This document shows, in pieces, positions 2,798-52,252 of a stretch of DNA of 64,000 nucleotides. Within the stretch, counting starts at the first letter, position 1. The number at the start of each line of letters is the position of its first letter. Source of the DNA: Octopus vulgaris (Eukaryota); the NCBI GenBank assembly GCA_951406725.2, contig OX597830.1:50902001-50966000 (forward strand), in the 5' to 3' direction. The notes below the pieces were generated by a model that made no database searches, was not told the origin of the DNA, and saw only the letters and a program-made list of their open reading frames with translations. The translations under genes and the position numbers were made by a program.

Positions 2798-3026
2798 TGA
2801 CGAAGAGCTCCGCTCGAAACGTTAAACCCTCCTTCTTCCCTTCTTTTCTGAGCGAGGACGTGGAACAAATATAGTATTATTGGACGCTCAGGAAAGGAAA
2901 GAAGGAGGGTTTAACGTTTCGAGCGGAGCTCTTCGTCAGAAACATAGGAGAAGGAAAGATACAGAGAAGGGAAGACAGAGGAAAAAAAAATCGCCAACGG
3001 TACACACGCGGCCACATTTTGAATCT
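2798..3026 (-). mobile_element. Short Penelope-like (pLTR-type) element, family A, with inverted partial duplication, within (TA)n
   Basis: 2798-2854 is the reverse complement of 2885-2939. Homologous copies lie at 32760-32970 and 52008-52252. It carries a hammerhead motif. Confidence 0.7.
2909..2943 (-). ncRNA. Minimal type I hammerhead ribozyme motif
   Basis: Minus strand reads gttt-CTGACGA-a-gagc-tcc-gctc-GAAAC-GTT-aaac: stem I gttt/aaac, stem II gagc/gctc, palindromic AACGTT stem III. Confidence 0.75.
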
Positions 3027-3156
3027 ATAAATATATATATATATTTTGAATATATATATATATATATATATATATTTATATATATATATATATATATATA
3101 ACATTATTGGTGAATTGAAGAAATGGAGCTGAACGCAGATTGAACAGAAATCGTTT

Positions 3157-3250
3157 TATTTCATTCTACACGTGTTTCGAAAGGCACAAATTACCAAAAT
3201 CCGATGGAATAATGGGACCATATTGTGTCTTTCTCTTCAGGAAGAAAATA
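3157..3250 (-). ncRNA. Type I hammerhead ribozyme motif (mirror copy of 4200-4293)
   Basis: Reverse complement of the 4200-4293 motif. Confidence 0.75.
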
Positions 3251-4199
3251 GGAAATCCGTTGGAAAAACAAAAACAGAACAGAGGCGGAGCAAAAACAAA
3301 TCGAACTATGCTCCTAAGAGCCCATGGCGAAACTGTTTATCAGTGTATGTTGAGAACCGGTGGCTGAAGAATTCAACGGGTCAGGCATCGGTCAATCATG
3401 TGGGTGAGGGGGCGTAGATGTTCTTTGTGACCGAGAATAAAGTTCTGACTATTTAAGGAATATTGGATGTTTTATAAGGGGCGAGAAAAAATCTACTTAG
3501 AGACGTGTGTGTGTGTATACTGTTCTATATACGTGTGTGTTGGCGTAGGGGTAGAAAACATTTTTTGTGTACGTGTGTGCGTTTGATCGTTCGGCTGTCA
3601 GTGGCTACTGCCGTGATGACCGTTGGGTGGCAGAAAAAAAATATACATCATGTTTTATGTGTGTGTGTGTTCTCATCTAAACCTGCCTTGTCAAGGAAAC
3701 CCCCCGCTGTGAAAAAACCAAGCCCCGTTTGTCTTACAGGAGTAATTCCCCTTGCAGTGGTTAATCGTAGATATCTTAAAGGCTATTTCAGAATTTGTTA
3801 CCAAGGGCTATGGGTGCCGGTATTATTTATAAACGCTATTTAAAAGCCAGATAAGTGTAACGCCGCCAATGGGGGCATCGAAAAGCCGACTGTAAAAGCC
3901 CGTTTACCATCCGGCCTCTGGCAAACAAAATATGGAAGAGTTCGGAGACACAAAGTCTCTTTTTCTCGCCCCTTATAAAACATCCAATATTCCTTAAATA
4001 GTCAGAACTTTATTCTCGGTCACAAAGAACATCTACGCCCCCTCACCCACATGATTGACCGATGCCTGACCCGTTGAATTCTTCAGCCACCGGTTCTCAA
4101 CATACACTGATAAACAGTTTCGCCATGGGCTCTTAGGAGCATAGTTCGATTTGTTTTTGCTCCGCCTCTGTTCTGTTTTTGTTTTTCCAACGGATTTCC

Positions 4200-4293
4200 T
4201 ATTTTCTTCCTGAAGAGAAAGACACAATATGGTCCCATTATTCCATCGGATTTTGGTAATTTGTGCCTTTCGAAACACGTGTAGAATGAAATA
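4200..4293 (+). ncRNA. Type I hammerhead ribozyme motif with extended stem II
   Basis: tattttcttc-CTGAAGA-gaaagacacaa...ttgtgcctttc-GAAAC-acgt-GTA-gaatgaaata. Stem I has 9/10 pairs, stem II 10/11 pairs, and stem III is palindromic ACACGTGT. Confidence 0.8.
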
Positions 4294-4752
4294 AAACGAT
4301 TTCTGTTCAATCTGCGTTCAGCTCCATTTCTTCAATTCACCAATAATGTTCTAATTTCAATTATCCGCACCAACGCACGGTTGCAACACCATATGGTTGT
4401 ACCTCCAGCCGTGCTGTTTTACTGCTGTGATTTTTGCTACTAAGGTATCGGTTAAACTTTTGATTAATCTACTACAAGATTATTCATCTTTCTATTTCAC
4501 ATAAATTATATATATATATATATATATGTATATATATATACATGTGTGTGTGTGTGTGTGTGTGTGTGTGTGTGTGTGTATAACGATGGCGGTTATCCGC
4601 AATATGAAACCAAAAGGGAAAAATTCAATCGTCACTAATTGTGACTGACAGTGAGCAGAGCAGTACATATATTGCTAGAAATAAGAATGAAAATCCTTTA
4701 TATATATATATATATATATATATATATATATATATATATATATATATATATA

Positions 4753-5440
4753 AAGTCTAAATAATTTAAATCCTAAATAGCAAAATTCATAATATAATAA
4801 ACATAAATTAAGCTGAAATGCTATAACTTAATCCATTTTCATTAATCAATTTATATATTTTATAAACATTTAATTTTCATCTTATTCTAATTATGTAATA
4901 TACACTATATAATCTCATGCTAATTTATACACATTTCACTATTACAAATTATAACTCCAACAATTAGTAACATAAAAGAGGGTTTATATACACAAATTAG
5001 CAATATGCTCTGGTTTCCATAACTTCGGAAATTTGAACTATGAACTTTTATGCTTCTTTTTTCTGTCGTCTTTCCACCTCCTCATTCTTTTCTCCTTTTC
5101 TCTATGTCGTCATCCTATTAATATATACCATTCTCAATTTCCCTATTTTGTTTTCCATATTTGTCTCTGATGATGGAATATCCCATACTCGGGGATATCC
5201 CAGAAACAGCTGTAAGATTTTGAATTTCTTCCTATAACAGCATTGTATATAACATGAGATGTTTGCCTAGCCTTAATGTTTGCTGTCCTGTTTAACAATT
5301 ACATATCCTCTGTATCGGAAATCTGCAATGGTTCAATAATTATCGTCTCGGCTATAACCTTGGAGCCCCAGTAATCTGTTAAAGCACTTACCAAGCGTAT
5401 TTAATCGTTTAGCTCACCTGTGAACTAAACCCCCATAATT
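4753..5440 (+). mobile_element. Putative Penelope-like element fragment, family C, between (TA)n tracts
   Basis: Bounded by TA arrays, with a pyrimidine-rich tract followed by a hammerhead motif. Boundaries are approximate. Confidence 0.55.
5163..5218 (+). ncRNA. Type I hammerhead ribozyme motif
   Basis: gtct-CTGATGA-tggaatatccc-atactcg-gggatatccca-GAAAC-agct-GTA-agat, with palindromic ACAGCTGT stem III. Confidence 0.8.
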
Positions 5441-5522
5441 TGTGTCTGTATATATATATATATATATATATATAAAAAACAAGTCAAAAATAGAAAATGG
5501 TAAAATAATTTTATAGTGAACA

Positions 5523-5566
5523 TTTCAGTACCGGTTTCGGTCATTTTGAGACCTTTTCAACTGTAA
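5523..5566 (-). ncRNA. Hammerhead ribozyme motif, U3-A8 core variant (family D)
   Basis: Minus strand reads ttacag-TTGAAAA-ggtc-tcaaaat-gacc-GAAAC-cg-GTA-ctgaaa. The host fragment ~5474-5780 sits between TA tracts. Confidence 0.65.
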
Positions 5567-50119: not shown

Positions 50120-50320
50120 ATCAGTACAAGGCCCAAAATGTTGAGAGATAGGGTGTCGAGTTAATTACATCGGCTTCAGGGCAAAAATGGACTAATTTTA
50201 TCGAACCCGAATGTATGACAGGTAAGACCGACCTCGGTAGTATTTGAACCTAGAACGTAAAAACGGACATGCTGCTAAGCATTTTCTCCAGTTGCTAATG
50301 GTTCAGCCATTTCGCTGTCT
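50120..50320 (-). mobile_element. Degenerate SINE family 2
   Basis: ttttatcgaacccga..gacctcggtagtatttgaac..gctaagcatttt. Confidence 0.7.
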
Positions 50321-50377
50321 CAGGTAAAGTTATAAATTTCGGTTTTATAGGCCCTTTGGACTGCTTGTATGTATATC

Positions 50378-50704
50378 ATTATCACCTCCGCCTTACAGAG
50401 GTTGTCTTTGAACAAGATATCTCAAGAATCGCTGGATCGATTCGAATGGAGCTTTCAGAGATGTTTGGCGTCGTGACTGACACAAACTGATTAGATTTTG
50501 GGATCGATCTGGTAACGAACAAGGATTTTATATTAGTTTGCCTGTTTTTTTTTTTTTTACTTAATTCTTGAGAACGGTAGGATTCATTTTTAATATTCTC
50601 ATTTGTGAGAGCAGTCGAATTTATTTCAGATATTCTCTGGCTAATCGTTCGGAGGATATTGGTGTTGCCTTGGCGGAGGTTTGCGCTCCCTGAATGCTCT
50701 TGTT
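50378..50704 (+). mobile_element. Helentron-associated (HINE/DINE-like) element
   Basis: Subterminal inverted repeats acctccgcc (50384) and ggcggaggt (50672), followed by a short hairpin remnant and TT. Confidence 0.7.
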
Positions 50705-50871
50705 TAGATTTATTTTTAGATTTCATGGCAATAGAGAAAGAACTGTTTTGCAACCTAGATACAAGGTTCTTTCTTTTGTGGCATTCTTGCATGTCAGTGT
50801 GCGTGAGTAAAATATCTGCTGTCAATATCTCTGTGCATTTGAATTGTTTTCGTTATGTATGTATTCTCATG

Positions 50872-51170
50872 TGGAGGCGCAATGGCCCAGAGTATAGGGC
50901 AGCGGACTCGCGGTCGGACGATCGCGGTTTCCATTCCCGGACCGGGCGTTGTGTGTGTTTATTGAGCGAAAACACCTGAAGCTCCACGAAGCTTCGGCAG
51001 CGGGTGGTGGCGACTCCTCTTGTACTCTTTCGCCCCACCTTTCTCTCACTCTCTCTTCCTGCTTCTTGAGTAACGCTGCGATGGACTCGCGCCCCCTCCA
51101 GCTGGGGCTGGGGAACAAATACACCACAGAAACTGGGAAACCGGGCCCATGAGCCTGGCTAGATAAAAAT
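50872..51170 (+). mobile_element. tRNA-derived SINE family 3
   Basis: Head shared with 32451 and 35263. Confidence 0.85.
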
Positions 51171-51267
51171 TAAAATGTATTCTCATATGTACAGCTGAAG
51201 GTCTAGGCATGTTATTATGTACTTATATGCTGAACTTCTGAAAAGTTACACATATGCTGACAATTTC

Positions 51268-51314
51268 CTTGGTAGTTTGTATGCTTGGTAGTTTGTATGC
51301 TTGGTAGTTTGTAT
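51268..51314. repeat. 3 x 16-bp tandem repeat cttggtagtttgtatg
   Basis: Direct reading. Confidence 0.9.
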
Positions 51315-52007
51315 CTGTAACCATCTAATTAGGCTTCTCTTCTCTGATTTTGAGAACCTGAACTTCGTAAGATTGATGCTGATACAGTTCATAACAGTGC
51401 TCCGATTGTTACTATAAATTTAAACGTGTAACCCGGGTAGAACACTCGCAATATATATAGTTACTCTTCTCTATCCAAAATCCCAATATCTGGTTTATTT
51501 TGCTTGCATTTTATTGAAGTTTACACTGAAACATTCCACCACTGTTTCTTACAGATTATGTGTGGTTATGACCTCTAACACACCGCGGGTTCTTATCTCA
51601 CTGGTGTCAAGACTATCCTTCCCACGGATTTCAATGTACTGTACCTAAGCTACAGCATGTCTCATCGGTAGATGCTTGTACGTGTGTACATATGTACGTA
51701 TGCATGAGTGAATGTATGTTTAACGTTATGTAAGAGTTCGAGAAATATGATTTACGTAGCGCAAATATTTTATGATAAAAGAACTCAATACATTAGTCAT
51801 TGTATCAATAGTTGTCAGTTTGCTTCGTATCTGTTTTTTCTTTAGCTATTTACCATAGAAAAAACTGTCAGCGTTATATATATCTATATGTATGTATGTA
51901 TGTATGTATGTATGTATGTATGTATATATGTATGCATGTATGTATGTATGTATGTATGTATGTATCTATCTATCTATATATATATATATATATATATATA
52001 TATATAG

Positions 52008-52252
52008 TAAATCCAGACATGAAAACACAGAGAAAACACAACAACGCGAGGACGTGGAACAAGTATGGTGTTATTGGACGCTCAGGAAAGGAAGGAAAGA
52101 AGGAAGGTTTAACGTTTCGAATGGAGCTCTTCGTCAGAAACATAGAAAAAGGAAAGATCGAAAGAAGGGAAAACGGAGGAAAAAAATCGCCAACGGTACA
52201 CGCGCGGTGACATTTTGAATATATATATATATTCAAAATGTGACCGTTGGCG
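52008..52252 (-). mobile_element. Penelope-like family A copy in (TA)n; hammerhead at 52107-52141
   Basis: Minus strand reads gttt-CTGACGA-agagctccattc-GAAAC-GTT-aaac. A short inverted copy of the end lies at 52231-52252. Confidence 0.75.

Follow-up and report, generated by a model that had tools for sequence, protein, structure and literature searches.

Hammerhead-type motifs in a 64-kb stretch of the Octopus vulgaris genome probably mark the ends of several Penelope-like element families

A 64,000-nucleotide (nt) stretch of the Octopus vulgaris genome (assembly GCA_951406725.2, contig OX597830.1, positions 50,902,001 to 50,966,000, forward strand; hereafter “the window,” numbered from its first letter) contains a series of hammerhead-like motifs beside TA arrays, which the original prediction took for a collection of non-autonomous ribozyme mini-elements colonizing (TA)n microsatellites. 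We consider it very likely that these motifs are instead hammerhead-type folds in the pseudo-long terminal repeats (pLTRs) of several Penelope-like element (PLE) families: families A to D would be truncated elements encoding reverse transcriptase (RT) and GIY-YIG endonuclease (EN), with family G and probably family E as riders. The motifs themselves, their covariation, the links to open reading frames (ORFs), the geometry of the ends and the TA association are all shown here.

Scanning the window with a descriptor for type I hammerheads (CUGANGA or UUGANAA core, GAAA, UH; at least 3 bp in each of stems I and II) identified six strict motifs (2939-, 3240-, 4210+, 5167+, 5560- and 52137-, the sign giving the strand), against a mean of 0.09 and a maximum of 1 in 100 local dinucleotide shuffles, an excess that is somewhat optimistic because the descriptor was tuned post hoc on known sites; a looser setting gave 8 motifs against 0.42 expected. 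The frequency thus exceeds that of shuffled sequence and the hammerhead motifs are real, although four of the nine sites originally listed fail the descriptor: the core at 32834 reads CCGACGA (U4C), the motif at 32196/32272 shows GCAA in place of GAAA together with a stem I of 2 bp, the one at 37467 is missing the 5' strand of stem I, and a U-U mismatch closes stem II at 41476/41523. The nine sites fall into seven families (A three times, then B, C, D, E, F and G), in agreement with the “at least six” first proposed, and an eighth, H (37956-/38752+), had been missed. Their supposed lack of any shared primary sequence was nearly right, the exception being 59 nt that D and E share at 75%, with the E tail common to D. 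The five palindromes expected in stem III (AACGTT/ACGT, ACACGTGT, ACAGCTGT, ACCGGT and ACATGT) were all found where claimed, but 41476/41523 has a true hairpin. No Rfam family matched the window at its gathering score, and none of the 150 listed among 475 weak matches was a hammerhead; minimal hammerheads may be missed by Rfam models, and hence this blank weighs nothing against the motifs. At 29531 (-), loose settings alone bring up one more hammerhead-like match, a weak one with stems of 2 bp and the palindrome ATCGAT.

The searched genome comprises 2.80 Gb in 227 contigs, in which A to H are all dispersed repeats. Each family was examined at its 25–30 best-scoring loci (numbered here with the prefix L); the searches returned 33–65 matches from at most 40 scored candidates (22–2123 at first look), figures that are not copy numbers. 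In 315,778 bases flanking the fetched loci there were 10 further strict motifs in 6 clusters, against 0–1 in each of 5 shuffles, and these clusters include 5 new hammerhead families (flanks of L050, L186, L105, L173, L121, L165 and L217). At about 2 strict motifs per 64 kb in the flanks, hammerhead-bearing ends are therefore common, and probably under-annotated, in the Octopus vulgaris genome.

Family B has the appearance of a young autonomous PLE, of which the window copy would be a 5'-truncated insertion. Its top 40 matches all showed 100% identity over 201 nt, and four of them stood in tandem at a spacing of 3624 bp; the 3624-bp unit carries a frame of 867 amino acids (aa), frameshifted near its start in that copy, and 20 open 899-aa frames occur among 131 scored protein matches, with 98–100% identity and on many contigs. 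The protein has RIRW, SDKT (DKT) and YRDD motifs, a C-terminal GIY-type segment, CNLC and CPH, and so bears the marks of the Hydra clade: an RWK-like motif, DKT, no CCHH, and C-terminal CxxC and CxH. In a structure model of modest quality (predicted local distance difference test, pLDDT, 69) the top three fold matches were telomerases (E 6e-9). The C-terminal AVYQCKV...YVGAS motifs align with homologues and, by eye, also with Hydra-1_Obim; profile searches with the protein gave no match to them. The B pLTR contains a hammerhead, and a TA array lies 123–135 or 277–292 nt past the motif in all nine members of the lineage in which the motif was located. Contigs of four sequencing runs of uncertain type cover part or all of the B unit and are of no use for expression or ends.

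Families A, C and D likewise run upstream into RT and/or GIY-YIG sequence in longer copies, which points to the window copies of A, B, C and D as ordinary 5'-truncated PLE insertions. A second search for A yielded 40 longer copies: in one (L247), RT and GIY-YIG lie about 1.76 kb upstream of the motif, continuous with it through sequence common to other copies, and in a second EN lies upstream of the motif. The A-linked RT/EN peptides match Neptune1_Ap motif for motif by eye. For D, a CxxC-GIY-YIG segment lies about 0.8 kb upstream in three copies (L249, L250 and L101), and with the class drawn from EN alone and no RT seen in them, D may be Neptune or Nematis. The Neptune marks (CX2-5CxxC linker, GIY-YIG with CCHH) are present in A and D, with the first Cys altered in L247. 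For C, one decayed long copy (L022/L251) joins Hydra RT/EN remnants to the motif, with a linker of the form CNC...C...C. The U4C core variant of A seen at 32834 occurs in 4 of 30 copies. We had at one point considered A non-autonomous, from its seemingly fixed 5' end; this was dropped once the longer copies were found. Hydra ORFs near D (L095, L107 and L250) were also considered as its own ORF and rejected, being inverted, downstream, or ending kilobases upstream, and so separate insertions. Other Hydra-type ORFs lie beside A and D copies (L245, L250, L107 and L095), with PLEs accumulating in shared TA arrays; these ORFs have 35–58% identity to database homologues, and the one in L250 keeps the linker motif and looks, by eye, like Hydra-1_Obim.

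Linked RT and/or GIY-YIG sequence, which the original prediction proposed to look for, is present for A, B, C and D but was not reached for the other four families, which differ among themselves. G forms a closed 358–362-nt tandem unit, seen at 3 of its 25 loci and linked to no PLE ORF. Its small size, tandem repetition, lack of an ORF and type I hammerhead agree with the layout of a non-LTR retrozyme; G is likely a non-autonomous, protein-less rider. E, at 120–160 nt, probably is one as well: its 5' ends lie within about 7 nt of one site in all 25 matches. E departs from the minimal type I core, having GCAA instead of GAAA in 25 of 25 matches, as well as a 2-bp stem I, with copies 95–98% identical, and an exact search (run with no positive control) found no E copy with an intact GAAA core. 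A13 is needed for hammerhead cleavage; a literature search on “A13C” found no paper. F has a 6-bp stem I, a true hairpin rather than a palindrome in stem III, and a U-U mismatch closing stem II. Both F and H extend several hundred bases upstream with no ORF reached, H having none in its 25 loci plus one 7-kb region. The upstream sequence of F was tried as an F ORF and rejected as an apparent segmental duplication with a helicase-like fragment: at L305/L306 on C28 a duplicated stretch of more than 5 kb carries this fragment and an F copy, and two of its three copies are 8.3 kb apart.

These results bear directly on the notion that all families are non-autonomous, retrozyme-like mini-elements with short units of their own, mobilized in trans. 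The closed unit of G, the fixed start of E and the 28 of 30 top A copies that reach less than 30 nt upstream of one site would all suit it, and a short A sub-element may amplify alone. As a general statement, however, it is already refuted: B is autonomous, A, C and D continue into RT/EN sequence, and 5' ends are widely scattered in B, C, D and H. We regard it as quite improbable for the set as a whole, and the single non-autonomous system originally envisaged does not hold, with four of the eight families joining PLE RT and/or GIY-YIG sequence; what survives of that proposal applies to G and probably to E. The absence of an intact ORF is true within the window, although a PLE ORF is represented there by its final ~39 codons, at 3839-3955 (-).

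The insertions themselves have the geometry expected of PLEs. Copies of families A to H are 5'-truncated and have inverted partners; most families have two preferred 3' ends, commonly next to a TA array. This amounts to the pLTR arrangement of tandem or inverted copies with an optional tail. B, C, D, E, G and H each show two 3'-end peaks, separated by 30–155 nt; F also has two ends, and A has a single peak. An inverted second motif was found in all seven families checked, from 1 of 30 copies (A) to 13 of 25 (F). A TA run, scored as at least 4 units beginning no more than 8 nt from the 3' end, adjoins 166 of 215 ends (77%) versus 6.8% of random flank positions: 20/30 in A, 28/30 in B, 16/30 in C, 22/25 in D, 25/25 in E, 24/25 in F, 15/25 in G and 16/25 in H. 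The original prediction is thus upheld in so far as mobile elements bearing minimal type I hammerheads of the PLE kind do target (TA)n. Of the 15 arms in the window, 12 have a TA array no more than about 12 nt from the 3' end, so that the claimed TA bounding holds for all except G and the two tail-to-tail arms of the first A copy (A1). That TA arrays were not targets and grew from, or were added at, element ends, or that the association simply reflects a TA-rich genome, seems to us very improbable. The internal (TA)3-4 at the short 3' end of C, D and E could seed an array, and numerous A copies are flanked by TA arrays left and right, but this would leave unexplained the difference between 77% and the background, the short B end (GTT|CTAA), which has no internal TA and yet abuts TA so regularly, the tandem B junctions, which run into the next unit without TA, and the single arrays common to different families (A1/B and C/D).

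The folds also appear to have been under selection. Across nine motifs of the B lineage the core is fixed except for N7, and both sides change in 8 of 19 pairs; 95% of cells pair (slid controls, 36–51%) and neither any of 500 shuffles nor any slid control reached this covariation. The subfamilies compared have proteins 55–99% identical to B. Core and three stems with covariation were found in A, B, C, D and the genomic copies of G, and are weak in F and H; the cores of D and G are the compensated U3-A8 form. Cofolding, run with no control, gained 6–11 kcal/mol for all eight motifs, degenerate E included, and so tells nothing about dimer cleavage. Dimer cleavage was reportedly worked on by Lunse et al. 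in 2017. That the motifs arose by chance, or are dead relics free of selection, as the four failing sites, the E core mutated in 25 of 25 copies and the Rfam blank might suggest, has next to no probability given six motifs where shuffles give 0.09, a fixed core with covarying stems across subfamilies, and compensated cores in D and G.

Several points nevertheless count against the PLE interpretation. Run on the B protein, Pfam shows neither RT nor GIY-YIG; its sequence search against the PDB was blank, as were the same searches on four homologues. The GIY-YIG matches for A and D stand at Pfam E values of 0.001–0.002, below the curated cut-off, and the coding links of A, C and D rest on one to three long, decayed copies per family. 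No ORF was found for E, G or H among the 25 loci of each family, nor for F among its 25 loci and a further 20. The 215 ends come from the best-scoring copies only, with both arms or neighboring units of 11 insertions counted separately. The B covariation derives from nine related sequences with the structure drawn from them, and is supportive rather than a probability; in H it extends to 2 of 18 predicted pairs, and the RNAalifold consensus fold differs, with the hammerhead not recovered.

If the PLE interpretation is right, then nicking, internal priming, early stops, inversions and any cleavage would follow the course suggested by published work on PLEs. The GIY-YIG endonuclease would nick AT-rich DNA, here (TA)n; the telomerase-like RT would prime at the nick and begin copying at either of two internal sites in the RNA, giving ends with or without a tail; and frequent early stops or an inverted second arm would leave most insertions as just a ribozyme-bearing end amid TA arrays. 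The palindromic stem III would allow paired motifs on tandem precursors to cleave as a dimer. Cleavage is probably weak and dispensable for insertion, and the amplification of E with a mutated core fits insertion without a working ribozyme. An internal (TA)3-4 in C, D and E, and TATTAATAT in G, stand exactly at the short 3' end (L025, L100, L146 and L175), and B has none. Internal TA at the short 3' ends could let the primer anneal, in contrast to the non-homologous start reported for PAc.

As far as the parts of the literature drawn on here extend, the overall arrangement is already known (hammerheads in PLE ends, Hydra and Neptune elements in (TA)n, and one Octopus Hydra family in print), and what we describe are new families of known kinds and no new system. 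Craig et al. (2021, PMC8557442) report hammerheads in Hydra elements and (TA)n as the insertion site of nearly all of them, Hydra-1_Obim of Octopus bimaculoides is listed with both features (PMC8557442 supplement), and tandem/inverted, 5'-truncated PLE copies have been described (PMC8557442). The PLE tail has been attributed to two internal reverse transcription start sites, and ribozyme mutants still insert in vitro (PMC11167929). Minimal hammerheads cleave weakly and as dimers only, and a U3-A8 core was reported in Schistosoma PLEs (Cervera and de la Pena, 2014, PMC4209133). Retrozymes have been suggested (PMC7229834) and argued (bioRxiv 10.64898/2026.07.22.740005) to be PLE derivatives. A 2026 repeat annotation of Octopus vulgaris reports 31 recently active Penelope-like families; its main text does not mention ribozymes, hammerheads or Hydra, and its transposable element library may hold the families described here.

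Families B and C resemble the Hydra clade in a single ORF with RT followed by a GIY-YIG (putative in B), R-x-R-W, DKT, lack of CCHH, C-terminal CxxC and CxH, a pLTR hammerhead, (TA)n insertion and tandem or inverted copies. B differs in its 3.6-kb unit (published Hydra elements are generally <3 kb) with frames of 778–934 aa across the lineage, a long stem II (12 bp plus a large loop), and a tail of ~150 nt rather than 30–40. A and D share with the Neptune clade the CX2-5CxxC linker, a GIY-YIG with CCHH-type residues and the microsatellite bias (Neptune1_Ap, PMC8557442 supplement), and are set apart by long 3' untranslated regions (0.8–1.8 kb) with internal microsatellites. The minimal hammerheads of PMC4209133 likewise have a type I fold, a palindromic stem III, an extra base ahead of stem II and the U3-A8 variant; they belong to many unrelated families per genome, mostly as single motifs from truncated PLEs, with opposite-strand pairs 100–700 bp apart. 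The monomer-type hairpin stem III of F and the family-wide GCAA for GAAA of E differ from them. With non-LTR retrozymes (PMC7229834; bioRxiv 10.64898/2026.07.22.740005) G shares the tandem unit length, type I hammerhead, lack of an ORF and low GC, and differs in its minimal U3-A8 motif, its short tandems, which hold two motifs at the loci examined, and its PLE-type marks: two 3' ends, inverted arms, and TA at 15 of 25 ends.

Three features may be novel: the B lineage without the linker motif and yet with TA ends, the amplification of E with a mutated core, and the PLE-type insertion marks of G. The CxCX5C linker motif has been proposed to mediate the microsatellite bias of these elements (PMC8557442). 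It is absent from all 12 B-lineage ORFs (chosen from matches to B), whereas 21 of 26 database homologues have it; one of the remaining five was read, and it ends at that point. In its place all 12 have an Asn/Ser-rich linker of 51–183 aa, with low pLDDT and 0–1 Cys, and in a quick, unrooted tree the B lineage forms one side of a branch with a Shimodaira–Hasegawa-like approximate likelihood ratio (SH-aLRT) of 100. Since B lacks CxCX5C, we class it as a derived lineage beside Hydra and not as a typical member; no report of such a lineage was found in the literature searched, most subscription journals being outside that search. We would give even chances to the proposal that the B lineage lost the linker zinc motif and yet inserts almost only in (TA)n, with G and E carrying the PLE insertion signature. 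If so, the targeting of B would be a property of its endonuclease or of its RNA, and G and E would show directly, from the genome, that retrozymes are mobilized by PLE proteins without need of a working ribozyme. Against a targeting role outside the linker, L250 holds a Hydra ORF that still bears the motif and might supply it in trans; besides, the 12 ORFs were sampled as matches to B. With its 20 open frames and 40 matches identical over 201 nt, B is young and intact and lends itself to the in vitro PLE assay, and its missing motif tests the published idea of linker-directed targeting. G and E bear on who mobilizes animal retrozymes and whether cleavage is needed.

Table 1. Family copies and arms in the window, with the motifs and TA arrays associated with each.
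Feature	Position	Strand	Remarks
Family A short inverted arm	2799..2854	+	Begins within ribozyme core; tail-to-tail with main arm; TA array 2761-2798 outside
Family A main arm, putative Neptune-type PLE 3' end, 5'-truncated	2864..3024	-	Hammerhead 2909-2943
Family B (Hydra PLE) main arm	3097..3955	-	Hammerhead 3164-3243; end in TA array 3026-3100
Family B inverted arm, ~150-nt tail	3960..4501	+	Hammerhead 4207-4286; end in TA array 4507-4540
Family C, putative decayed Hydra PLE 3' end with tail	5005..5448	+	Hammerhead 5163-5218, palindrome ACAGCUGU
Family D, putative Neptune-type PLE 3' end	5475..5785	-	Hammerhead 5526-5563, U3-A8 core; TA array 5449-5474 common to C
Family E arm with tail	32089..32252	-	Degenerate hammerhead UUGAUAA...GCAA, 2-bp stem I
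Family E arm without tail	32254..32378	+	Degenerate hammerhead
Family A copy	32766..32969	+	CCGACGA (U4C) core; TA arrays either side
Family G partial copy of 358-362-nt tandem, retrozyme-like unit	37253..37499	-	Not TA-bounded
Family H arm	37862..38361	-	Hammerhead core at 37956
Family H arm with tail	38405..38947	+	Core at 38752, 5-bp stem I; end in TA array 38948-38975
Family F inverted arm, short 3' end	41465..41527	-	
Family F arm	41522..41660	+	6-bp stem I, hairpin stem III (ACAG/CUGU), U-U closing stem II
Family A copy	52006..52228	-	Core at 52137; TA arrays either side

Tandem repeats account for 130 rows in the window, most of them TA-type, and a repeat search otherwise dominated by microsatellites gave one further signal, the 394-nt inversion of family B (Table 1), whose main arm has 99.1% identity to a full-length copy. 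The first A hammerhead (2909-2943) has the core CUGACGA, an additional A ahead of stem II, the palindrome ACGU and a GUU site. At 2799-3024 the two arms of this A copy meet tail-to-tail across a short microhomology, and TA arrays lie on their outer sides, whereas the usual PLE inversion is head-to-head. The G copy begins at the core, which accounts for its missing strand of stem I; other copies keep CTGCA/TGCAG. Abutting the 5' end of this copy, at 37500-37690 (+), is a segment (FNSLPKHLRD...FKKQ) that we take to be a C-terminal fragment of a non-LTR retrotransposon ORF2. A repeated element of ~200 nt ending GAAACAAGTAAAAGA, beside TG/TA arrays at 5860-6070, 31860-32040 and similar places, is presumably a short interspersed nuclear element. 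A 162-aa frame at 19185-19673 (-) resembles, by eye, an AP-endonuclease fragment of a non-LTR element, and 30367-31300 (-) is part of a 451-aa stop-free frame in sequence of ordinary complexity.

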